This document shows positions 23,033 to 38,725 of a stretch of DNA of 64,000 bases, piece after piece. The stretch lies in contig JALSHG010000012.1 of the NCBI GenBank assembly GCA_026982355.1, positions 30,579 through 94,578 of the forward strand. Direction: 5' to 3'. Within the stretch, counting starts at the first letter, position 1, and every line of letters begins with the position of its first letter. The DNA is from Thermodesulfovibrio sp. (GTDB lineage Bacteria > Nitrospirota > Thermodesulfovibrionia > UBA6902). The translations under genes were made by a program, and so were the position numbers. Under the pieces are notes generated by a model that saw only the letters and a program-made list of their open reading frames with translations, was not told the DNA's origin and did not search any database.

Positions 23033-24349
23033 GTGAAAACTGAAATGAATGTTATATCTGTCGGCATCATAGGATTCGGAACCGTGGGCACGGGAACCGC
23101 AAGAATACTCACGGAGCGGCGCAGGGAGCTTGAAACCAGGCTGGGGTTTTCCGTGGCCCTGAAAAATATCGCCGACCTTGATACGAAACGCGACAGGGGC
23201 GTGAAACTCGGCAGGGGCGTCCTGATCCGCGATGCGGACGCCATACTGGAAGACCCGGATATCGATATCGTGGTGGAGTTGATCGGCGGTATCCATCCGG
23301 CAAAGGAGATTATACTCAGGGCCATTGAAAACGGCAAACACGTCGTCACCGCGAACAAGGCGCTTCTTGCCGAAGAAGGCAGGGAGATTTTCAGGGCCGC
23401 CGCAAGACACAGGGTGGATATCGGGTTTGAGGCCGCGGTTGCCGGCAGTATCCCGATAATAAAAGTCGTCAGGGAGTCCCTTGCAGGGAACCGGATCAGG
23501 AACATATACGGAATCATCAACGGGACCGCCAACTACATCCTGACAAAGATGACGGAAGAAGGCGTGGACTTTGATACAGCCCTCCGGGAGGCGCAGGAAC
23601 TCGGATATGCGGAGGCTGATCCCACATTCGATATCGAGGGCGTTGATTCAGCGCACAAGCTTGCAATACTCGCCTCGCTTTCCTTCGGCATCCCCTTTTC
23701 CTTCAAAAAGATATATACTGAGGGCATAACCGCCGTAACACCGCTGGATATACAGTTTGCGTCGGAATTCGGGTATAAGATAAAGCTGGTTGCAATAGCC
23801 AAGCAGGCTGACGGGGAAGTGGAACTCAGGGTTCATCCGACGATGATCCCGGACAATGAGCTTGTTTCAGGCGTCGGCGGCGTGTTCAACGCCGTTTATA
23901 TCGAAGGAGACGCAACAGGCCCCGCGCTTTATTACGGCAGGGGGGCCGGTGAGATGCCGACCGGGAGCGCCGTCGTGAGTGACATCATAGATATTGCGCG
24001 GAATATAAAGACAGGGGCGGTCGAGAGATTCGGGCGCGCCGGAATCCCCGTGAATCCCGGTATCAGGATCAGAAAAATGCAGGATATACGCACGGGTTAT
24101 TATCTCCGCTTCTCAGCCATTGACAAACCGGGGGTCCTTTCAAAGATATCCGGCATCCTCGGTGGTTACAATATCAGCATCAAGTCCATGATCCAGAAGG
24201 GCAGGAAAAGGGAAAAGGCCGTGCCCGTGGTCATGATGACCCATGAGGCAAGGGAGAAGGACATGATGCAGGCATTAAGGAAAATCGACCGCCTTGCGGT
24301 TGTATCAGGCAGGACAATGTACCTGAGGGTCGAGGGAGGAGAGGAATGA
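23033..24349 (+). CDS. hom: Homoserine dehydrogenase with C-terminal ACT domain
   Basis: 438 aa; VGIIGFGTVGTG NAD motif and ACT domain at C-terminus. Confidence 0.9.
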   Translation: MKTEMNVISVGIIGFGTVGTGTARILTERRRELETRLGFSVALKNIADLDTKRDRGVKLGRGVLIRDADAILEDPDIDIVVELIGGIHPAKEIILRAIENGKHVVTANKALLAEEGREIFRAAARHRVDIGFEAAVAGSIPIIKVVRESLAGNRIRNIYGIINGTANYILTKMTEEGVDFDTALREAQELGYAEADPTFDIEGVDSAHKLAILASLSFGIPFSFKKIYTEGITAVTPLDIQFASEFGYKIKLVAIAKQADGEVELRVHPTMIPDNELVSGVGGVFNAVYIEGDATGPALYYGRGAGEMPTGSAVVSDIIDIARNIKTGAVERFGRAGIPVNPGIRIRKMQDIRTGYYLRFSAIDKPGVLSKISGILGGYNISIKSMIQKGRKREKAVPVVMMTHEAREKDMMQALRKIDRLAVVSGRTMYLRVEGGEE

Positions 24350-24350
24350 A

Positions 24351-24599
24351 ATGGGTGATATAAAAATAGACAAGCACCTGGATATAAGGGGAGAGGTATG
24401 CCCGTACACCCTGGTGAAGTCAAAGCTCGGTGTCGAGTCCATAGAAGTGGGACAGGTGATAGAGATAATCCTGGATTATCCGGAGGCCGCGGAGAGCATC
24501 CCGAAGGCAATGCTCAATTACGGGCATTCGGTCATTAAGGTGGAAAAAATCAATCCAAAGGAATGGATTGTCCAAATAAGAAAAGAGGTTGAAGACTGA
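24351..24599 (+). CDS. tusA: TusA-family sulfurtransferase
   Basis: 82 aa; DIRGEVCPYT (CPxP) active-site motif. Confidence 0.8.
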   Translation: MGDIKIDKHLDIRGEVCPYTLVKSKLGVESIEVGQVIEIILDYPEAAESIPKAMLNYGHSVIKVEKINPKEWIVQIRKEVED

Positions 24600-25399
24600 T
24601 GGAATTCACGGAAGAACAGTTAAAGAGATACAGCAGGCATATAATCCTGCCCGAAGTGGGCGGCAAGGGACAGAAGAAGATTTCAGGGGCGAAGGTCCTC
24701 ATAGTCGGCGCAGGCGGACTGGGCTGCCCCGCGGGGTATTATCTTGCGGCGGCCGGGGTCGGCACCCTGGCAATCGTGGATAACGACACCGTGGAGCTCA
24801 GCAACCTGCAGAGGCAGATAGCACACAGTGTAAAGACACTCAATGTCAACAAGGCCGAGTCGGCCAAACAGACCTTTGAGGCGCTGAACCCCGACGTCAA
24901 CGTGATCGCGGTAAAGGAAAGGATAAACAGCAGGAACATCCTTAACCTTATAAGGGATTATGATATTATTGTGGACGGCACGGACAATTTTCCCACGAGA
25001 TACCTGATCAATGATGCATGCGTAATGCTCCGCAAGCCGCTCGTCAGCGGGGCCATTCTCAGGTTCGAGGGGCAGGTGACCGCCATACTGCCCGGTGAGG
25101 GGCCTTGCTACCGCTGTCTGTTTGAAGAACCGCCTCCGCCCGGGCTTGTTCCTTCATGCCAGGAGGCCGGAGTGCTCGGAGTTCTTCCCGGTGTTATCGG
25201 GGCATTGCAGGCAACCGAGGTGCTTAAACTGATCCTCGGGAAGGGCCTGCCCTTAAAGGGCAGTCTGCTGATATATGACGCCCTCGGGGTGAATTTCAGG
25301 AAGGTAAAAATACCCAGGAACGATAACTGCCCTGTATGCGGTAAAAACCCCCGCATTAAAGAGCTGAGCGACCTTCCGGAAGAGTACTGCTCGATATAA
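24599..25399 (+). CDS. ThiF/MoeB/MoeZ-family E1-like adenylyltransferase for sulfur-carrier proteins
   Basis: 266 aa; LIVGAGGLGCPAGYYLAAAGVG nucleotide motif; C-terminal CxxC...CxxC zinc site (CYRC, CPVC). Confidence 0.85.
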   Translation: MEFTEEQLKRYSRHIILPEVGGKGQKKISGAKVLIVGAGGLGCPAGYYLAAAGVGTLAIVDNDTVELSNLQRQIAHSVKTLNVNKAESAKQTFEALNPDVNVIAVKERINSRNILNLIRDYDIIVDGTDNFPTRYLINDACVMLRKPLVSGAILRFEGQVTAILPGEGPCYRCLFEEPPPPGLVPSCQEAGVLGVLPGVIGALQATEVLKLILGKGLPLKGSLLIYDALGVNFRKVKIPRNDNCPVCGKNPRIKELSDLPEEYCSI

Positions 25400-25426
25400 A
25401 CCTTAATGTTGCATAAAACCACCGCC
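25399..25426. repeat. Half copy (AACCTTAATGTTGCATAAAACCACCGCC) abutting the moeB/thiF stop codon
   Basis: Direct reading. Confidence 0.7.
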
Positions 25427-25539
25427 TCGCATACTCCCCCTTTGCCCGGGAGGGGCCTGAGTGGAAAATTCCGTGCTGTTGAATTATTATCGGATTTACC
25501 GTAATCTATTTGAATGCTGATGATCGTGGAGGCTACTAA

Positions 25540-26778
25540 ATGGGTTTCGTAAAAGGACTTAAATGCAGGGAATGCGGAAGGGAATACGCGGTTGACCCCA
25601 TATATGTGTGTGAGTTCTGCTTCGGCCCCCTGGAGGTTGTTTATGATTATGACGGGATCATGGATGTCCTGACAAGGGAAGAGATACTGTCAAGGCCCCA
25701 GAACCTGTGGCGTTACAAGGAGCTGATGCCGATAGACGGGGAGCCCACGAGCGGGCTTAACTCCGGGTTTACGCCGCTTGTGAAGGCAGACAAGCTGGGC
25801 GGGTATCTCGGGCTGAAGGAACTTTACATAAAGGATGACACCGTCACACACCCGACACTTTCTTTCAAGGACAGGGTTGTGGCCGTTGCATTGTCCAAGG
25901 CCAGGGAGTTCGGATTCGACACTGTTGCATGCGCCTCCACAGGGAATCTCGCCCATTCGGTGTCGGCTCACGGCGCTGCCGCGGGTTTCAGGAGATTCAT
26001 CTTCATCCCGGCAAGCCTTGAACGCAGCAAGATAGTTGCATCGCTTGCGTATGAGCCGAATCTCATAGCCGTTGACGGCAACTATGACGATGTCAACAGG
26101 CTCTGCAGCGAGGTGGCCAATAAATATCCGTGGGCGTTTGTAAACATAAATATCAGGCCGTTCTATGCAGAGGGATCGAAGTCCCAGGGATACGAGATCG
26201 TGGAGCAGCTCGGATGGAAGGCGCCGGATGCAATCGTTGTGCCGTGCGCGAGCGGTTCTTTAATGACAAAGATATGGAAGAGCCTCAAAGAGATGAATCG
26301 GATCGGTCTTATCGGCGAAGTGCAGACAAAGATTTTTTCCGCGCAGGCGACCGGCTGTTCCCCTATCGTAAGGGCTATAAAGGAAGGCGTTGATGTGATC
26401 AAACCCGTAAAACCCGATACGGTGGCAAAATCCCTTGCCATCGGAAATCCCGCAGACGGCTTTTACGCCACTCAGGTTGTCAAGGAAAGCGGAGGGTTCG
26501 GAGCGGATGTATCCGATGCCGAGATAATAGAGGCGATAAAGCTTCTTGCAAGGACGGAGGGGATTTTTGCCGAGACCGCCGGCGGTGTAACGCTCGCCTC
26601 TGCAATAAAGCTGATGGAAAGCGGGCACATAGCCAAGGATGCCGTGACGGTTCTCAGCATTACAGGCAACGGCCTCAAGACCAAAGAGGCCATCATGGGA
26701 CATACGGCCGAGCCTCACCATATCGATCCCAACCTGAAGTCATTTGAGGAGGCATTGAAGAAGATCAACGCGGCTTGA
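25540..26778 (+). CDS. Threonine synthase-like PLP enzyme (fold type II) with N-terminal zinc ribbon; candidate carrier-protein-thiocarboxylate-dependent sulfhydrylase (MetM-like)
   Basis: 412 aa; CRECG...CEFC ribbon; PLP-lysine motif SFKDR; encoded between the E1-like gene and the ThiS-like carrier; a canonical thrC lies downstream. Confidence 0.7.
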   Translation: MGFVKGLKCRECGREYAVDPIYVCEFCFGPLEVVYDYDGIMDVLTREEILSRPQNLWRYKELMPIDGEPTSGLNSGFTPLVKADKLGGYLGLKELYIKDDTVTHPTLSFKDRVVAVALSKAREFGFDTVACASTGNLAHSVSAHGAAAGFRRFIFIPASLERSKIVASLAYEPNLIAVDGNYDDVNRLCSEVANKYPWAFVNINIRPFYAEGSKSQGYEIVEQLGWKAPDAIVVPCASGSLMTKIWKSLKEMNRIGLIGEVQTKIFSAQATGCSPIVRAIKEGVDVIKPVKPDTVAKSLAIGNPADGFYATQVVKESGGFGADVSDAEIIEAIKLLARTEGIFAETAGGVTLASAIKLMESGHIAKDAVTVLSITGNGLKTKEAIMGHTAEPHHIDPNLKSFEEALKKINAA

Positions 26779-26782
26779 GATA

Positions 26783-26880
26783 ACCTTAATGTGGTGGCAT
26801 CCACGTGCAGAGGAGTCTGCCGGAAAACCTGCCGCACACTCCTCTGCTCCGCCGCCGGTATTTCATGCAACTGTAAGGAC
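26783..26880. repeat. Full-length copy of a dispersed palindromic intergenic element (arms AACCTTAATGTGGTGGCAT / ATGCAACTGTAAGG; inner inverted repeat GCAGAGGAGT / ACTCCTCTGC)
   Basis: Direct reading; arms are reverse complements; same family as copies listed below. Confidence 0.8.
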
Positions 26881-26906
26881 TCAAAATTTTTCAAGGAGGA
26901 AGATAA

Positions 26907-27206
26907 ATGGCTGTTAAAGTGAAAATCCCCGTGCCCCTTCAGCGGCTTACGGGGGGACGGGAAGAAGTCGAGGGAACACCCGGCACCATAATATCGCTTA
27001 TCAACGACCTTGATCGGAAGTACCCCGGACTTGCCGAGAGAATATCCGAGGGAGGAAAGATCAGGAGATTTGTCAATGTCTATGTTAATGAAGAGGATGT
27101 GAGATTCATGAAAAACGAGGAAACGGAAGTCAAGGACGGTGACGAAGTCTCTATAGTCCCTGCAATCGCAGGGGGCGGTGTTTTCTGTAAAAAAGGAGGA
27201 CGGTGA
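26907..27206 (+). CDS. ThiS/MoaD/CysO-like sulfur carrier protein with internal GlyGly followed by a short C-terminal extension
   Basis: 99 aa beta-grasp-sized protein ...VSIVPAIAGGGVFCKKGGR; strong RBS; 3' end overlaps next gene start. Confidence 0.65.
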   Translation: MAVKVKIPVPLQRLTGGREEVEGTPGTIISLINDLDRKYPGLAERISEGGKIRRFVNVYVNEEDVRFMKNEETEVKDGDEVSIVPAIAGGGVFCKKGGR

Positions 27207-27442
27207 TGAAGACCAGGGTGAAGCTGACCTTTCCCCAGCACCTCATAAAAGAACCGGTGATATTTACCATGGCAAAGAAATACGACATAATACCCAATAT
27301 CAGAAGGGCGCGGGTCACCGAGTCCGTGGGCGAGATGGTCCTTGAGCTCGAAGGCGCGGATGAAAACGTCAACAGCGGCATAGAGTCACTCAAGCAGCAG
27401 GGCGTGGACGTAGAGCTTGTGGAAGGCGATATACTGGAATAA
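27206..27442 (+). CDS. NIL-domain small protein (MetN C-terminal-like ferredoxin-fold domain)
   Basis: ~78 aa; RBS AAGGAGGA 6 nt upstream of ATG 27206; similarity pattern to NIL domains of methionine importer ATPases. Confidence 0.5.
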   Translation: MKTRVKLTFPQHLIKEPVIFTMAKKYDIIPNIRRARVTESVGEMVLELEGADENVNSGIESLKQQGVDVELVEGDILE

Positions 27443-27444
27443 CC

Positions 27445-28512
27445 ATGCGACCATGGTACGGACTGATTGACCAGTACAGGGATTTCCTCCCCGTATCCGG
27501 GAAAACACCGGTTGTTACCCTGAATGAAGGCAACACCCCTCTTATAAGGGCATCCCGCCTGAACGAGGTTCTTGAGGAAGAGATAAATCTTTATTTTAAA
27601 TACGAGGGGTCCAATCCCAGCGGTTCATTCAAGGACCGCGGCATGACGCTGGCGATCTCAAAGGCGGTTGAAGACGGCGCAAGGGCCGTCATATGCGCAT
27701 CAACAGGCAATACATCCGCCTCCGCATCGGCCTATTCGGCAAAGGCCGGCATAGGCGCCATTGTCCTTATCCCCGAGGGCAAGATAGCCCTGGGCAAGCT
27801 CGCCCAGGCACTGATACACGGGGCAATGGTGCTGCAGGTTGAAGGCAATTTCGACGATGCATTGAGGATTGTCAAGGAGCTTGTGGAAAAACATCCCTTT
27901 GCCCTTGTCAATTCCCTGAACCCGTTCAGGATAGAGGGCCAGAAGACAGCGGCCTTCGAGATATGCGACCAACTGGGCGCAGCGCCTGATTACCATGTCC
28001 TCCCTGTAGGCAATGCCGGCAACATCACGGCATACTGGAAGGGGTACAGGGAGTACCGTGAGGCCGGCAGGACCGCTTCCCTGCCGAAGATGCTCGGATT
28101 TCAGGCCGCCGGGGCCGCGCCTATAGTAAAGGGCAGGCCGGTGGAACGCCCGGAGACAGTGGCCACTGCCATAAGGATCGGGAACCCCGCAAGCTGGAAG
28201 GGGGCCATTGCCGCAAGGGATGAATCAGGAGGGCTTATAGAATCCGTCACCGATGAAGAAATTATCAATGCCTACAAACTGATAGCTTCAAGGGAAGGTA
28301 TCTTCTGCGAGCCTGCATCCGCCGCCACACTGGCCGGCGTGATAAAACTCTCAAAACGTAATTTTTTTTCGAAAGGCGACACGGTTGTCTGCACACTTAC
28401 AGGCAATGGACTGAAAGACTCCGACAGCGCCCTTAAGTTATCCGCGCCTCCTGTAAAGGTAAAGGCCGAGATAACGGCCGTTGAGGAACTGCTGAAGGGC
28501 TGCTGCCTGTAA
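27445..28512 (+). CDS. thrC: Threonine synthase
   Basis: 355 aa short-type ThrC; GSNPSGSFKDRG PLP motif. Confidence 0.9.
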   Translation: MRPWYGLIDQYRDFLPVSGKTPVVTLNEGNTPLIRASRLNEVLEEEINLYFKYEGSNPSGSFKDRGMTLAISKAVEDGARAVICASTGNTSASASAYSAKAGIGAIVLIPEGKIALGKLAQALIHGAMVLQVEGNFDDALRIVKELVEKHPFALVNSLNPFRIEGQKTAAFEICDQLGAAPDYHVLPVGNAGNITAYWKGYREYREAGRTASLPKMLGFQAAGAAPIVKGRPVERPETVATAIRIGNPASWKGAIAARDESGGLIESVTDEEIINAYKLIASREGIFCEPASAATLAGVIKLSKRNFFSKGDTVVCTLTGNGLKDSDSALKLSAPPVKVKAEITAVEELLKGCCL

Positions 28513-28520
28513 CGGCTGCA

Positions 28521-28835
28521 TCATTTCCCCAACTCATGCAGTGCGAGCTCCTGCAGCCTGGACAGCAACGGGCGCAGCGACGCGGGCACGTCGGCATCAT
28601 CAAGCGAAAGCGATATCTCCCTGCCGCCTTCAGAAAGTGAAAGCCTGTAGTTCAGGGCATCGGGACGGGCGGCCGGTTCCCGTGGGGGCCTGTCAGGCCT
28701 CATGTCAAAGACGCCCGAGCTTTTCACGAGGGACAGGAGTTCGTCCCCGACCTTTTCGGGAAGCTTACCGGTATCCGCATGATACGAGAGCCGTAAACCT
28801 GCATATCCCCCTGAACACTCAAAGTCTATAAGCAT
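28521..28835 (-). CDS. Hypothetical small protein downstream of and co-oriented with the M4 protease; candidate emfourin-like protease inhibitor (positional inference)
   Basis: 104 aa, no signal peptide, 52 bp after protease stop; protealysin-like proteases are typically followed by the ~100 aa inhibitor emfourin. Confidence 0.35.
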   Translation of the reverse strand: MLIDFECSGGYAGLRLSYHADTGKLPEKVGDELLSLVKSSGVFDMRPDRPPREPAARPDALNYRLSLSEGGREISLSLDDADVPASLRPLLSRLQELALHELGK

Positions 28836-28887
28836 GTTTTCAGGCTGACTGAGCAGCCTCCGAGAGGCTGCTCAGGATTTCAATTTG

Positions 28888-29964
28888 TCAACGGGGCAGC
28901 CCCACGGCTTTAAATGCCGCACGCACTGTCTGGACCGAACCCGCGGGCGCCTGTCCGCTCTTGACAAGCAGCCGTGCCGATTCGACAATCACCTCGACCG
29001 CGTCATTGAAGGCAGCGGTGCTCCATAGTCTCTGCAGCGCCGTGTACCATATCAGCGCAGCCTTGTCAGTGCCGAGGGTATCGGTTGCCGCGAGGTAAAA
29101 CGCCCTGTTGAGGATACCGCTGTTGATATGAACGCCCTGGTTGTCCTTGGGGCCTGAATAGTAATCCTTCATGTGGTCCGGCTGGTGGTCCTTGCCCATG
29201 AGTTTGTTGTCGTATGCCGTGCCGGGCGCCTTCATGGAGCGAAGCGCTTCCCCGTAAAGGTCGGGTCCCATAATCTCGTCACCGATGAGCCAGTCCGCAT
29301 CATGGGCGGTCTGCCCCTTTTTATACTGTGTTATCACGGAGCCGAAGACATCAGAGAAGTGTTCATTCAACGCCCCCGACTGGCTGTGGTACTTCAGGTT
29401 CGCCGTAAACTGCGTAACCCCGTGGGTCAGTTCATGCGCCACCACGTCGAGGGAGCGCGCAAAGCTGACGAATATCCTGCCGTCTCCGTCACCGAAGGTC
29501 ATCTCGTCGCCGTCCCAAAAGGCGTTCATGTATTTCGTCCCGTAGTGGACGTTGAAGAGCAGGTTCATCCCGAGGTTGTCCACGGAATTCCTGTTCAGAA
29601 CGTTCCTGTAGTAATCGCGCACGGCGCCGGCATACTCGTAGGCCTCGTTCACCGCGTCATCGGAGGTTACGGGGTCGCCTTCGCCCCTTGCCAGATCAAC
29701 CCGTTGTTTCCACTGGTTTTTGCAGTTGTAAACCTGCCGGGACGCCGTGCCCGCGGGCGCGGTCGTGACGCCCGTAAACGCCTCCATGCCGATTTCCTTT
29801 GCACTCCTCTTCACGCGGCTCAGCTCGCTCTGCTGAATGCTCACCCTTGCCTCATCAACCCCGGCCCTCGCCAGGTTTTCCAGCACATCGGGTGGGATGT
29901 ACATGCAGTTGCACCTGTGAATAAACATGCTGTCCTCCTTTTTTGATTGTTTCCGGTTTTGCAT
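28888..29964 (-). CDS. M4 (thermolysin-family) zinc metalloprotease, protealysin-like (no signal peptide, short propeptide)
   Basis: 358 aa; HELTHGV (HExxH) and NEHFSDVFG (third zinc ligand) motifs; N-terminal propeptide with PPDVL motif. Confidence 0.85.
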   Translation of the reverse strand: MQNRKQSKKEDSMFIHRCNCMYIPPDVLENLARAGVDEARVSIQQSELSRVKRSAKEIGMEAFTGVTTAPAGTASRQVYNCKNQWKQRVDLARGEGDPVTSDDAVNEAYEYAGAVRDYYRNVLNRNSVDNLGMNLLFNVHYGTKYMNAFWDGDEMTFGDGDGRIFVSFARSLDVVAHELTHGVTQFTANLKYHSQSGALNEHFSDVFGSVITQYKKGQTAHDADWLIGDEIMGPDLYGEALRSMKAPGTAYDNKLMGKDHQPDHMKDYYSGPKDNQGVHINSGILNRAFYLAATDTLGTDKAALIWYTALQRLWSTAAFNDAVEVIVESARLLVKSGQAPAGSVQTVRAAFKAVGLPR

Positions 29965-31961: not shown

Positions 31962-32174
31962 TCATGCATATATCAACCTCTCTCCCTTAGGTTCAGGGAT
32001 AGGATCTCCAAACTCCTTTGCAGTATCGATCCATAACTGAATAGCATCTTGAACATTTTTTATCGCTTCTTCATAAGTCTTTCCATGTGCCGTACACCCA
32101 GGGAGTTCAGGGACTTCTGCGATAAAAGCATCGTCCTCTCTGCTCCAGTAGATTATAATTTCATATTTGTACAT
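31962..32174 (-). CDS. hicB: HicB-family antitoxin (UPF0150)
   Basis: 70 aa; ...PELPGCTAHGKTYEEAIKNVQDAI motif. Confidence 0.7.
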   Translation of the reverse strand: MYKYEIIIYWSREDDAFIAEVPELPGCTAHGKTYEEAIKNVQDAIQLWIDTAKEFGDPIPEPKGERLIYA

Positions 32175-32425
32175 TATCTGCCTCCAAGTTTATATTTAAC
32201 AATTATGTTTCTTACCTGCTTCACCTGATAAGGTTTTGCTTTATTACCTTCTCGTTGCAGATTAATCTTTTCTACTATGCCGTCCTTTCTGAATATATGA
32301 TGGCTACCTCTAACCCTCATTTCAAAGCCTAATTTCTCAAGCAAATTGCACAAATCTTCAAACTTGATATTGGCATCTGATGTGCCACTCAATATCTGCA
32401 GAATCAGTTTTTCATATTTACCCAT
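32174..32425 (-). CDS. hicA: HicA-family mRNA interferase toxin
   Basis: 83 aa; GSHHIF motif; stop overlaps hicB start (ATGA). Confidence 0.75.
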   Translation of the reverse strand: MGKYEKLILQILSGTSDANIKFEDLCNLLEKLGFEMRVRGSHHIFRKDGIVEKINLQREGNKAKPYQVKQVRNIIVKYKLGGR

Positions 32426-35969: not shown

Positions 35970-36725
35970 TTATTTTGATTCAAGTATAAAACGCTTGTTG
36001 ATGGGCTGGGTCGGCCTGTTGTTGTGCCCTCCTATGACCGCCTCGAATTTCCTGATCTGCTCCCCGGACACCTCAATGGGGGTCTTCAGCACGCTCCAGT
36101 TGACCCCCTCACTGCACGGCGGCGTGGTCAGAGAGCCGTAGAAATGATAGTAGCCCCTTTCAGCGGGCAGCAGGTCGGCGGCGTTGACGGATATGGAGTC
36201 CACGGTGTTTTCCTCGTTTACGACAGGTGAGATGTTGTCCCATATCTTCTGTATGAGATCATTGGCCCTGCCCTCTTTCAGGAATACGCCCACCACGGCA
36301 AGCTCGTTGTTGCTGTTTTTATGAACGAGGTGCATTTCCATGCTGTAATGTTTGCCTCCAACGGTGTTTTCGCTCGGAGCATGAAAGTGAAACTGGAGGA
36401 GTTCGTACTTTTCGCCGTCCACAATTACGGAACTGCCCGGCAGGTAATTGACCTGTACGGTGTGGCCGTTGTTGATCACCTTCAGCGGCGTTGCCTTGTA
36501 GGAGAACACTATGTCTTGCAGGTCCGCCTTGTATGTTTTGTTGATATCCACGGGTGACTGGGCCTTGCCCTTTTCGCACATGCTGAAATCGTGTGACAGT
36601 TTGCCCCAGTGTTCAGGGCCGTTTTCCCCTGTATATCCCCACAGGCCGTGGGCGGCCTCCGCCCTGGATGAAAACGACATGAGTAATACCGCCGCCGACA
36701 GAATAAAAAGACATACTTTCTTCAC
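35970..36725 (-). CDS. Alpha-class carbonic anhydrase, secreted (Sec signal peptide), encoded inside the nuo operon between nuoL and nuoM
   Basis: GTG start at 36725 preceded by AAGGAGGG RBS; signal KKVCLFILSAAVLLMSFSSRAEA; alpha-CA motifs HWGY, QSPVDI, NNGH, QFHFHAPSE, EMHLVH, GSLTTPPCSE. Confidence 0.9.
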   Translation of the reverse strand: MKKVCLFILSAAVLLMSFSSRAEAAHGLWGYTGENGPEHWGKLSHDFSMCEKGKAQSPVDINKTYKADLQDIVFSYKATPLKVINNGHTVQVNYLPGSSVIVDGEKYELLQFHFHAPSENTVGGKHYSMEMHLVHKNSNNELAVVGVFLKEGRANDLIQKIWDNISPVVNEENTVDSISVNAADLLPAERGYYHFYGSLTTPPCSEGVNWSVLKTPIEVSGEQIRKFEAVIGGHNNRPTQPINKRFILESK

Positions 36726-36802
36726 AATAATCCCTCCTTCTGAAATAATATTTGCCTGGTAAAACAAACTGTATATGAATTCACTCTCTATCTGAATCAT
36801 AA

Positions 36803-38725
36803 TCACCTCAGGAAAATCCAGAATCCGATTATAAACATGGCGCCTAGCACCATGGCGAGGCCGTAGCTGGAGAGAAGGCCGGTCTGTATGGTCCTGAACC
36901 TCCTGCTGAAGGCGCCGATCAATGCCGGCACGCCGTTTACAATCCCTTCTATTATCTTTGCATCAAAAAAGCCGAGGATTATCCTGTCCGATGCCTTGAG
37001 CGTCGGCTGGACAATGGTCTTGCCGTAAAGTTCATCCACCCAGTACTTGTTGTACAGGAGCCTGTAGACCGGCTGGAACATGGCCCCCAGTTTCCCGGGC
37101 AGGTCGGTCTTCCTGATATACATGATATATGCTATCAGTATTCCGGCCAGACCCGCTATAATGGAGATTCCCATCACGGCCAGCTCTTCGGCATGTGAAC
37201 CCTCGCCTGCCGGATGCCCGAGCACCGGCGCGAGGAATTCACCGATCCTGTCCGCGTGTTCCAGAAAGATGGGCGGAATGCCCACCCAGCCAGCCGCCAC
37301 GGCGCCGACCGCGAGAATCATCAGAGGCACGGTTATCACGGGCGGCGACTCATGCAGGTGGCGCTCCTGCTCAGGAGTTCCGCGGAACTTGCCGTGGAAC
37401 GTCAGGTATATCAGCCTGAATGAGTAAAACGCGGTCAAGAGGGCCGCCGCGGCGGCAAGGAACCACAGGAACCTGCCGAGCCCGCCGCTCAGGTACGCCC
37501 TCCAGAGTATCTCGTCCTTGCTGAAGAAACCAGCGAAACCGGGTATGCCCGAAATGCTCAGCGATGCCAGGATAAACACCCAGTAGGTTATGGGCATGTA
37601 TTTTTTCAACCCGCCCATCTTCTGCATATTCTGCTCATCGTGCAGTGCATGTATAACGCTTCCCGATGCAAGGAAGAGCAGTGCCTTGAAGTAGGCGTGC
37701 GTATACAGGTGAAAGATTCCCGCTGTATAGGCACCCACCCCGAGCGCAAGGAACATGTACCCGAGCTGGCTCACCGTGGAGTACGCTATGACCCTCTTTA
37801 TGTCATTCTGCACAAGCGCAATGGTGGCCGCAAAGATGGCGGTCACGCCCCCGACGACCGCAACCGTGGCCATTGCCGATGCGGACAGGTTGAAAAGCGG
37901 GCTGCTGCGGGCGACCATGAACACGCCCGCCGTAACCATGGTTGCGGCGTGTATCAGTGCGGAAACCGGCGTGGGGCCTTCCATTGCGTCCGGCAGCCAC
38001 ACATGCAGCGGCAGCTGCGCCGATTTGCCCACGGCCCCGCAGAAGAGCAGCAGGCATATGACGGTAATGGTGTCGAACTGGTAACCGAGGATACTGATGG
38101 TCTGGCCGGCCACGCTGCCTGCATTCTCAAATACCTTCACGTATTCAAGGCTGCCGAATGTAAGGAAAATCAGTATCACGCCGAGACCGAAACCGAAGTC
38201 CCCGAACCTGTTGACTATAAAGGCCTTCTTGCCGGCGTCCGCTGCGGACTTTTTGTGGAACCAGAAGCCTATCAGGAAATAGGAGCACAGGCCCACGGCC
38301 TCCCAGCCGAAGTAAAGGAGCAGGAAGTTGTTGGCCATGACAAGGATGAGCATTGAGAAAACAAACAGGCTCAGATAGGCGAAGAAGCGGTAATAACCGC
38401 CGTCGCCGTGCATGTAGCCTATGGAATATATGAAGATAAGTGTGCTGATGGATGTAACCACCATCAGCATTACGGCGGTGAGCTGATCAATGAGAAACCC
38501 TATGGACACATTGAAGTCACCCGAGACTATCCAGCTGTATATGTTTATATTGATGACTTTTCCGCCCAGTACATCCATGAACGCGCTGACGGCAAGGATG
38601 AAAGAGGCGAACACGGCCGGCACCGCAATCCAGTGGGCCTTGTCTTTTATGTGGTTGCGCCCGAACAGGATGTTTATGACAAATGCAATAAACGGCAGTA
38701 ACGGTATCAATATATATTTCACCAT
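36803..38725 (-). CDS. nuoL: NADH-quinone oxidoreductase subunit L
   Basis: 640 aa antiporter-like subunit with long C-terminal helix region. Confidence 0.9.
   Translation of the reverse strand: MVKYILIPLLPFIAFVINILFGRNHIKDKAHWIAVPAVFASFILAVSAFMDVLGGKVININIYSWIVSGDFNVSIGFLIDQLTAVMLMVVTSISTLIFIYSIGYMHGDGGYYRFFAYLSLFVFSMLILVMANNFLLLYFGWEAVGLCSYFLIGFWFHKKSAADAGKKAFIVNRFGDFGFGLGVILIFLTFGSLEYVKVFENAGSVAGQTISILGYQFDTITVICLLLFCGAVGKSAQLPLHVWLPDAMEGPTPVSALIHAATMVTAGVFMVARSSPLFNLSASAMATVAVVGGVTAIFAATIALVQNDIKRVIAYSTVSQLGYMFLALGVGAYTAGIFHLYTHAYFKALLFLASGSVIHALHDEQNMQKMGGLKKYMPITYWVFILASLSISGIPGFAGFFSKDEILWRAYLSGGLGRFLWFLAAAAALLTAFYSFRLIYLTFHGKFRGTPEQERHLHESPPVITVPLMILAVGAVAAGWVGIPPIFLEHADRIGEFLAPVLGHPAGEGSHAEELAVMGISIIAGLAGILIAYIMYIRKTDLPGKLGAMFQPVYRLLYNKYWVDELYGKTIVQPTLKASDRIILGFFDAKIIEGIVNGVPALIGAFSRRFRTIQTGLLSSYGLAMVLGAMFIIGFWIFLR

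Follow-up and report, generated by a model that had tools for sequence, protein, structure and literature searches.

A seven-gene array between hom and thrC in an uncultured Nitrospirota bacterium probably encodes a MetM/MetO-type thiocarboxylate route to homocysteine, with a NIL protein as conserved partner of the sulfur carrier

We analyzed a 64-kb stretch of DNA (hereafter the window) from an uncultured Nitrospirota bacterium of the class Thermodesulfovibrionia, concentrating on a cluster at positions 23033-28512 in which seven co-oriented open reading frames (ORFs) lie on the plus strand in the order hom, tusA, a gene for a ThiF/MoeB-type E1 enzyme, a gene for a Zn-ribbon paralog of threonine synthase (ThrC), a gene for a ThiS-fold sulfur carrier, a NIL gene, and thrC. 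The same seven genes were returned by the ORF listing and by an independent gene caller run on the source contig, and the Pfam assignments, all above gathering thresholds, agree with the tightly spaced order that the initial annotation had described. The first gene, hom (23033-24349; 438 aa, with its start at 23045 in the independent gene call), encodes a protein with Homoserine_dh, NAD_binding_3, and C-terminal ACT domains that scored 553 bits on the NCBIfam model PRK06349 (cutoff 205). A 1-nt gap separates it from the TusA-like gene (24351-24599; 82 aa; Pfam TusA, 67 bits against a cutoff of 28.6), which in turn overlaps the E1 gene (24599-25399; 266 aa; Pfam ThiF, 293 bits) by 1 nt. The ThrC paralog (25540-26778; 412 aa; Pfam PALP and NinF), our candidate for a MetM-like enzyme, is flanked by a 140-nt spacer on the E1 side (25400-25539) and by a 128-nt spacer holding a 10-bp hairpin on the carrier side (26779-26906). 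The carrier gene (26907-27206; 99 aa; Pfam ThiS, 64.7 bits) and the NIL gene (27203-27442; 79 aa, or 78 aa from an ATG at 27206; Pfam NIL, 63.6 bits against a cutoff of 24) share the sequence TGATG at their junction, an overlap of 4 nt or, with the later NIL start, of 1 nt. Coupling is evident at three of these junctions, hom/tusA, tusA/E1, and carrier/NIL. The NIL gene ends 2 nt from thrC (27445-28512), whose 355-aa product, a canonical ThrC with a Pfam PALP domain, scored 332 bits on TIGR00260 (cutoff 167). The same array was found in three relatives (L085-L087) at ~85% identity, with different genes on its flanks; because it is kept in these different surroundings, it is not a chance juxtaposition.

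The 412-aa protein is a fold-type-II enzyme of the ThrC family (Pfam PALP, 221 bits), its nearest solved structures are threonine synthases, and the Pfam NinF model for Zn ribbons detected its N-terminal four-Cys ribbon. When 30 diverse members of the family were aligned, the lysine that binds pyridoxal phosphate (PLP), K110 in the motif SFKDR, and the ribbon cysteines C9, C12, C24, and C27 were invariant or nearly so, confirming the SFKDR motif and the CxxC...CxxC ribbon read earlier from the single sequence. A precedent for an enzyme of this kind comes from Streptomyces albulus, in which, according to the GapMind 2026 account of Hasebe et al. 2024, AEM 90:e01247-24, O-phosphohomoserine (OPH) is converted to homocysteine by a thiocarboxylate route consisting of the carrier MetO, the JAMM hydrolase Mec, the E1 enzyme MoeZ, and MetM; the same account calls MetM "often misannotated" as threonine synthase. 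The 412-aa protein is 38% identical to the canonical ThrC encoded three genes 3' of it in the window. An exhaustive HMMER search for its homologs returned 1782 cluster representatives at E<1e-30, and its identity to carrier-linked homologs was 53-74% across at least 10 phyla, the groups represented being Thermodesulfovibrio, Deltaproteobacteria, Aquificaceae, Nitrospinota, Chloroflexota/Dehalococcoidia, Verrucomicrobiota, Planctomycetota, Acidobacteriota, Methylomirabilota, Actinomycetes, and many cyanobacteria. Cyanobacterial homologs were 56-58% identical to it, and a cyanobacterial "ThrC" that adjoins a MetO-like gene has been reported to share 51.6% identity with S. albulus MetM. On the cysteate synthase model TIGR03844, a comparison that the initial annotation had proposed, the protein scored 60.5 bits, far under the cutoff of 324.9, and it is not a member of that family.

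To place the paralog in its genomic context, we called ORFs in 80 related loci, 26 cyanobacterial and 54 non-cyanobacterial, which span at least 10 phyla, and used the proteins of the window as queries against these ORFs. A ThiS-fold carrier lay within 3 kb of the ThrC paralog in 71/80 loci, comprising 25 of the 26 cyanobacterial and 46 of the 54 non-cyanobacterial ones. All other components near the paralog were confined to the non-cyanobacterial set, with 0/26 cyanobacterial loci in each case: NIL was present in 29/54 (29/80 overall), E1 in 17/54 (17/80), JAMM in 5/54 (5/80), and TusA in 2/54 (2/80). The same held for S-adenosylmethionine (SAM)-I riboswitches, which occurred near the paralog in 30/54 non-cyanobacterial and 0/26 cyanobacterial loci (30/80). 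Matches to the Rfam SAM-I family above its gathering threshold (68-96 bits, cutoff 44.4) lay directly 5' of the ThrC paralog and on the same strand in 7/12 loci. A covariance model built from six of these Rfam-detected riboswitches, searched against the window and the 80 loci (1.13 Mb in total), gave 31 matches, all of them on the gene strand and just 5' of the paralog or its operon. SAM riboswitches are a classic marker of methionine and SAM genes and not of threonine genes; their position 5' of the paralog therefore places the family in the methionine regulon in many phyla. The metM gene of S. albulus has likewise been reported to have an upstream SAM riboswitch.

The carrier belongs to the CysO type. 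Its residues 1-90 (26907-27176), which end in ...SIVPAIAGG and which we take as the mature part, aligned end to end with the CysO structures 4n6e_B and 3dwg_C from Amycolatopsis and Mycobacterium tuberculosis, both of which end at Gly-Gly; the score against a CysO structure was 83.8 bits and the identity to M. tuberculosis CysO ~50%. By comparison, the carrier scored 19.8 bits on the moaD model TIGR01682 (cutoff 66) and 48.6 bits on the moaD_arch model TIGR01687 (cutoff 49.5), and was likewise under the cutoff of the thiS model. The possibility raised earlier that the carrier is a MoaD is thus countered by the CysO-type match and by moaD scores under cutoff. Beyond Gly-Gly, the gene encodes nine further residues, GVFCKKGGR, and the stop codon (27177-27206), and this presumed propeptide is encoded by DNA that also holds the ribosome-binding site of the NIL gene. 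Most members of the carrier family end exactly at ...SIVPA(I/V)AGG, and about twenty have short tails. Within the lineage of the window, the carrier core is conserved and the sequence past Gly-Gly is hypervariable, reading I, RGI, GVFCKKGGR, a 15-aa tail, or straight through into NIL, and it therefore shows the pattern of a discarded propeptide. A nine-residue tail would therefore have to be processed by a protease, and Prok-JAB genes were found in five related clusters (L006, L008, L011, L028, and L088).

For the E1 enzyme, the best solved relative was Escherichia coli MoeB (1jw9), and the score on the NCBIfam MoeB-subfamily model PRK05690 was 312.8 bits (cutoff 266). ThiF was the one informative domain in its 266 residues: no rhodanese domain was present, and the MoeZ model gave 322 bits against a cutoff of 647. 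MoeZ-type E1 enzymes were also considered for the other loci and rejected, as none of ten further cluster-linked E1s carried a Pfam rhodanese domain. The TusA-like protein has the conserved Cys-Pro motif of its family (...RGEVCPYT...), and the tusA-E1 pair, with its 1-nt overlap, is kept in the three relatives L085-L087. TusA also accompanies the module in Acidulodesulfobacterium (L088) and in a Nitrospinaceae locus (L020). The TusA/rhodanese-less E1 pair is an accessory that is lineage-specific, and TusA is a candidate persulfide donor to the adenylated carrier, a role proposed because of the known chemistry of the TusA family.

We then considered the sixth gene. Wherever NIL occurred in the 54 non-cyanobacterial loci, it adjoined the carrier, and no NIL was found in a locus that had no carrier. 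A SAM riboswitch was present in 14 of the 29 NIL loci, and NIL therefore often lies within a riboswitch-controlled operon. The gene order varies, being metM-NIL-carrier in Chloroflexota. Tandem NIL-NIL proteins of 177-183 aa were also encoded near a MetM-like/carrier pair in two loci (L020, 12296-13032; L059, 2139-2672), the one in L020 immediately preceded by a TusA gene; this arrangement suits a NIL that functions as a dimer, as it does in MetN. In the methionine ATP-binding cassette importer, the C2 (NIL) domain of MetN mediates trans-inhibition by L-Met. The Asn residue N32 of the window NIL protein aligns with N295 of E. coli MetN, whose replacement by Ala reduces L-Met binding to undetectable levels (PMC6233128). 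The initial annotation had suggested that NIL is a regulatory or sensing partner of the module; the partnership is now evident as a conserved and sometimes covalent association with the carrier, and the regulatory role is one that we infer.

The covalent association takes the form of single polypeptides of 171-176 aa in three loci (L006, L008, and L028), each of which also has Prok-JAB and E1 genes. In these proteins, both Pfam domains score above threshold and ...SIIPAIAGG is followed by a linker of 5-8 residues and then by NIL. When the L006 fusion was used as a query, the best 120 matches were all ThiS plus NIL proteins, with 58-100% identity and lengths of 167-189 aa; those carrying names were annotated "MoaD family protein" or "molybdopterin synthase sulfur carrier subunit". 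Three more fusion genes lie directly 3' of a Zn-ribbon ThrC paralog, in Acidulodesulfobacterium, Limnocylindrales, and Nitrospirae, and the Acidulodesulfobacterium locus (L088) adds E1, TusA, a second PALP enzyme, and JAB. Throughout the fusion family, PAIAGG is invariant, a small residue (A or S) comes next, and a short basic linker then leads into NIL, in which the motif TNIRxA is conserved. The motif of the standalone NIL protein of the window is PNIRRA. An AlphaFold2 model of a fusion protein, computed from a 63-sequence alignment, had a mean predicted local distance difference test score (pLDDT) of 89.8 and a predicted template modeling score (pTM) of 0.54, with a dip in confidence at residues 81-100. 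On this model, each domain is well folded, the two are not confidently packed against each other, and the junction between them is exposed. In Foldseek searches, the N-terminal domain of this model matched CysO (3dwg_C; 52% identity, 1.4 Å), and the C-terminal domain matched the MetN C2 domain (3tuz_H) with a root-mean-square deviation (rmsd) of 0.9 Å over 73 columns.

Two further candidates for a carrier-NIL fusion were rejected. A 210-aa ORF in the relative L087 (9400-10032; 86% identity) joins the two domains through a 40-residue low-complexity linker that is an in-frame translation of spacer, and split genes are present elsewhere in the same assembly; it has the look of a chance fusion or an artefact of the assembly, and illustrates how true fusions could arise. 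The solved structure 1V8C, a Thermus thermophilus "MoaD related protein" that Foldseek matched over its full length, resembles the fusions in its ThiS/MoaD-fold domain, its internal ...VAGG/GFE junction, and its second domain of ~78 aa. However, its C-terminal domain was not detected by the fusion-family profile and is not NIL by that measure, so 1V8C is an architectural analogue only. Several of the true fusion loci also add one or two CysK/CysM-like PALP genes (L006, 9918-11787; L028, 1937-2890; L088, 7508-8518), and in those loci one carrier may feed both cysteine and homocysteine synthesis. In a Nitrospirae locus (L090, 6596-7831), an ATP sulfurylase gene lies directly 3' of the carrier-NIL fusion, which ties sulfate activation to the module.

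Together, these observations suggest, with a probability that we put at roughly 80%, that the cluster is an operon at the OPH branch point encoding a MetM/MetO-type protein-thiocarboxylate route to homocysteine. The initial annotation had proposed such a route from the homoserine branch, and the proposal is strengthened by the carrier linkage (71/80 loci), the SAM-I riboswitches (30/80), the divergence of the two window paralogs, and the CysO-type carrier. The pathway, of which we infer each catalytic step, the sulfur donor, tail removal, and what NIL binds and acts upon, would run as follows. Hom would supply homoserine, which a homoserine kinase encoded elsewhere would convert to OPH. The 99-aa carrier would be trimmed to Gly-Gly by a protease from outside the window, adenylated by the rhodanese-less MoeB/ThiF E1, and converted to the thiocarboxylate, with the co-translated TusA as the probable relay of the persulfide sulfur. 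The MetM-like PLP enzyme would then replace the phosphate of OPH at the γ-carbon with the thiocarboxylate sulfur of the carrier, giving homocysteine either directly or on release of a carrier-homocysteine adduct. ThrC, the product of the last gene, would turn the same OPH into threonine and so compete with the MetM-like enzyme. The most likely role of NIL would be that of a small dimeric sensor of methionine, homocysteine, or a similar ligand that tunes flux into the sulfur branch. In plants, cystathionine γ-synthase and ThrC compete for OPH, and because MetM and ThrC would compete for it here, it is plausible that this branch point has a post-translational regulator.

Comparison with known systems sharpens this proposal. 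The cluster resembles the S. albulus MetM/MetO system in having a ThrC-homologous PLP enzyme beside a ThiS-fold carrier, in the implied substrate OPH, in the need for an E1 and for C-terminal processing of the carrier, and in the SAM riboswitch, which here is found in relatives. It differs in that its E1 lacks the rhodanese domain of MoeZ and is translationally coupled to TusA, that neither a JAMM/Mec gene nor a riboswitch is present in the window, that the NIL gene overlaps the carrier gene, and that the module sits between hom and thrC. With the CysM/CysO/MoeZ/Mec system of M. tuberculosis it shares the carrier subfamily (residues 1-90 ending at Gly-Gly) and the use of an E1-made thiocarboxylate by a fold-type-II PLP enzyme on an O-phospho amino acid; in contrast, the enzyme here is of the ThrC family, with OPH as the inferred substrate and homocysteine as the inferred product. 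Homocysteine synthesis from a protein thiocarboxylate has also been described for the HcyS/HcyF/HcyD/MetY proteins of Wolinella succinogenes (Krishnamoorthy and Begley 2011, cited in PMC5764234). In that system, the carrier likewise has residues past Gly-Gly, removed there by a JAMM protease, but the sulfur is used by a fold type I O-acetylhomoserine sulfhydrylase and not by a ThrC-family enzyme. Among the systems by which anaerobes insert sulfur to form homocysteine, the L-aspartate-semialdehyde sulfurtransferase of methanogens and Desulfovibrio likewise has a NIL domain attached; it consists of a DUF39/COG1900 protein (MA1821) and a NIL-ferredoxin (MA1822), and its NIL has been proposed to serve methionine feedback. 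Here, by contrast, no DUF39 gene is present in the window, the 79-aa protein comprises NIL with no ferredoxin domain, the substrate would be OPH and not aspartate semialdehyde, and NIL partners a ubiquitin-like carrier. Relative to MetN C2, the carrier-linked NIL shares the Pfam family, the fold (0.9 Å for the NIL domain of the fusion homolog), and the N295-equivalent Asn, but it is standalone or carrier-fused instead of ATPase-attached, lacks four residues of the β2-β3 region, and has a near-invariant Arg two residues past the Asn.

Several observations weigh against the proposed route or against parts of it. The 412-aa protein scored 270 bits on TIGR00260, the ThrC equivalog model, well above the cutoff of 167, and 295.8 bits on the ThrC model PRK08197, just under the cutoff of 303. 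The tie to S. albulus MetM is indirect, running through the cyanobacterial homologs, and a search seeded with a riboswitch-controlled actinomycete member (L074) returned Acidimicrobiia-type matches only, with no Streptomyces among them. The window copy has no SAM riboswitch, and neither have the cyanobacterial and the Nitrospirota/Nitrospinota copies. No JAMM motif (HxH...S..D) was found in any ORF of the 64-kb window despite the nine-residue tail of the carrier, and no thrB is encoded there. TusA is rarely linked, occurring in 2/80 loci in addition to L088 and the close relatives L085-L087. As regards NIL, the residue equivalent to N295 is N in 26/34, D in 7/34, and S in 1/34 of the carrier-linked domains, and the best conserved residue is instead R34 (32/34), two residues past it and absent from MetN. 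On these residue patterns, the NIL ligand is plausibly methionine-like and may differ from methionine.

We therefore weighed other explanations of the same locus. The 412-aa protein could be a second threonine synthase of the archaeal Zn-ribbon type, with the carrier, E1, and TusA as mere neighbours serving molybdenum cofactor, thiamin, or tRNA thiolation; besides the TIGR00260 score, the archaeal ThrC models also span the ribbon region, and every database name among the homologs is "threonine synthase". Yet GapMind 2026 describes misannotation as ThrC as frequent for MetM, a canonical ThrC already lies three genes 3', the carrier is CysO-type and not a moaD or thiS product by model score, and the paralog is accompanied by a carrier in many phyla and preceded by SAM riboswitches in 30 of the 80 loci. 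The carrier linkage, the riboswitches of the family, and the 38% identity to the window ThrC thus set the protein apart from the bona fide threonine synthases, with which it should have clustered had the proposal of the initial annotation been wrong, and we regard a second threonine synthase as very improbable. Scarcely more probable is a module for cysteine or another thio-amino acid, with O-phosphoserine as the starting compound as for CysM and CysO, or a carrier that serves cysteine and homocysteine synthesis alike. The close similarity of the carrier to M. tuberculosis CysO and the CysK/CysM-like PALP enzymes of the L006, L028, and L088 clusters would suit such a role, but no CysM-like gene is present in the window, the PLP enzyme is a ThrC-family member encoded between hom and thrC, its cysteate synthase score is very low (60 against 325 bits), and the SAM riboswitches of relatives point to methionine.

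A more serious contender leaves the pathway unchanged and concerns NIL, which might be not a metabolite sensor but a carrier-handling module or propeptide that caps the carrier C-terminus, whether as the Gly-Gly carboxylate, the thiocarboxylate, or the homocysteine adduct. A capping NIL would control maturation by JAMM, protect the thiocarboxylate, or aid product release. Such a function would account well for a large family in which NIL is fused directly past the invariant PAIAGG through a linker of a few residues, for the presence of E1 and/or JAMM in 5/6 of the fusion loci examined (L006, L008, and L028 each with JAMM, L088 with JAB), for the absence of any NIL apart from a carrier in the 80 loci, and for an AlphaFold2 model with two independent domains and a less confident junction; the nearly invariant R34 could bind a carboxylate. 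A parallel exists in MoaX of M. tuberculosis, a MoaD-MoaE fusion that is cleaved at Gly-Gly and in which a carrier is joined to a protein that binds its tail. Conversely, many carriers have a free Gly-Gly terminus alongside a NIL encoded by its own gene, so capping cannot be general; the Chloroflexota order places NIL before the carrier; and both the fold and the conserved Asn agree with those of a known site for methionine. We consider capping a real but minority possibility. Equally tentative is a combined form of the sensor role, in which NIL would be a ligand-gated partner that binds methionine, homocysteine, or a related ligand and thereby controls the Gly-Gly maturation, activation, or use of the MetO-type carrier.

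The initial annotation had also held that the combination with TusA and a NIL protein was not a described operon type. The core route has already been published, and no published link of NIL to MetM/MetO was found in a literature search that did not cover the primary MetM/MetO paper. What looks new relative to the literature searched is NIL as a conserved third component, together with the large family of carrier-NIL fusions; the combination of TusA with a rhodanese-less E1, and the embedding of the module between hom and thrC in this lineage, also look new.

The spacers on either side of the ThrC paralog were considered as possible sites of a conserved RNA element, which was rejected because both their length and their sequence differ in the relatives L085-L087 (~85% identity). 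A riboswitch was looked for in the window, the 140-nt spacer included: Rfam gave no match, either at gathering thresholds or at E<=1, and the SAM-I covariance model gave no window match. An 11-mer, AACCTTAATGT, occurs four times in the window (25399 and 26782 on the plus strand, 30023 and 31460 on the minus strand), with ~0.03 occurrences expected by chance. All four copies are intergenic and lie shortly past a stop codon, one of them in each spacer region of the cluster, and the similarity around them extends partly over ~40 nt with the consensus TAACCTTAATGTKGCAYAA...GCAGAGGAGTCTGCCG. A small dispersed repeat could explain these copies, as could an element that 3' ends share.

The remaining genes of the window are housekeeping genes for lipid A and the outer membrane, topA, argG, ribonucleotide reductase, the complex I operon, and glmSU; among all genes of the 64 kb, none was thrB, metX/metY, DUF39, or moaE. 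Immediately 3' of the thrC operon, and in convergent orientation to it, a gene for an emfourin-family protein (104 aa) lies beside one for an M4 (thermolysin-like) peptidase (28521-29964, minus strand), and a protealysin-type protease with its inhibitor emfourin is a known pairing. A HicB antitoxin/HicA toxin pair (31962-32425, minus strand) is located between a BrkB-like gene and the complex I operon. Within the nuo operon, an alpha-type carbonic anhydrase gene (Pfam Carb_anhydrase; 35970-36806, minus strand) is bordered by a NuoL-like gene on one side and two Proton_antipo_M genes on the other; this position is unusual and may link the antiporter-like subunits to the handling of CO2/bicarbonate.

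For many anaerobes and thermophiles, homocysteine synthesis was long a gap in what their genomes could explain. Aquifex aeolicus and Acidimicrobium ferrooxidans, for example, were listed in 2018 as having no known homocysteine route (PMC5764234). MetM-like genes were present in Aquificaceae (L009) and in Acidimicrobiia (Acidithrix ferrooxidans and Acidimicrobiales), and the MetM-like family probably fills the gap in both groups. More broadly, the MetM-type enzyme, for which threonine synthase is the usual annotation, is linked to a carrier in Nitrospirota, Aquificota, Nitrospinota, Chloroflexota, Verrucomicrobiota, Planctomycetota, Acidobacteriota, Acidimicrobiia, and cyanobacteria, with a SAM riboswitch in many of these phyla, and this distribution bears on the auxotrophies predicted for metagenome-assembled genomes. 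The carrier-NIL fusion physically joins a domain of the methionine-sensor type to a sulfur carrier. If NIL does act as a ligand-gated partner of the carrier, it would be a control or handling element shared by two unrelated anaerobic pathways to homocysteine, the DUF39/NIL-ferredoxin and the MetM/MetO/NIL systems, and the fusions would represent a prokaryotic ubiquitin-like protein made as a precursor fused to its own regulator.

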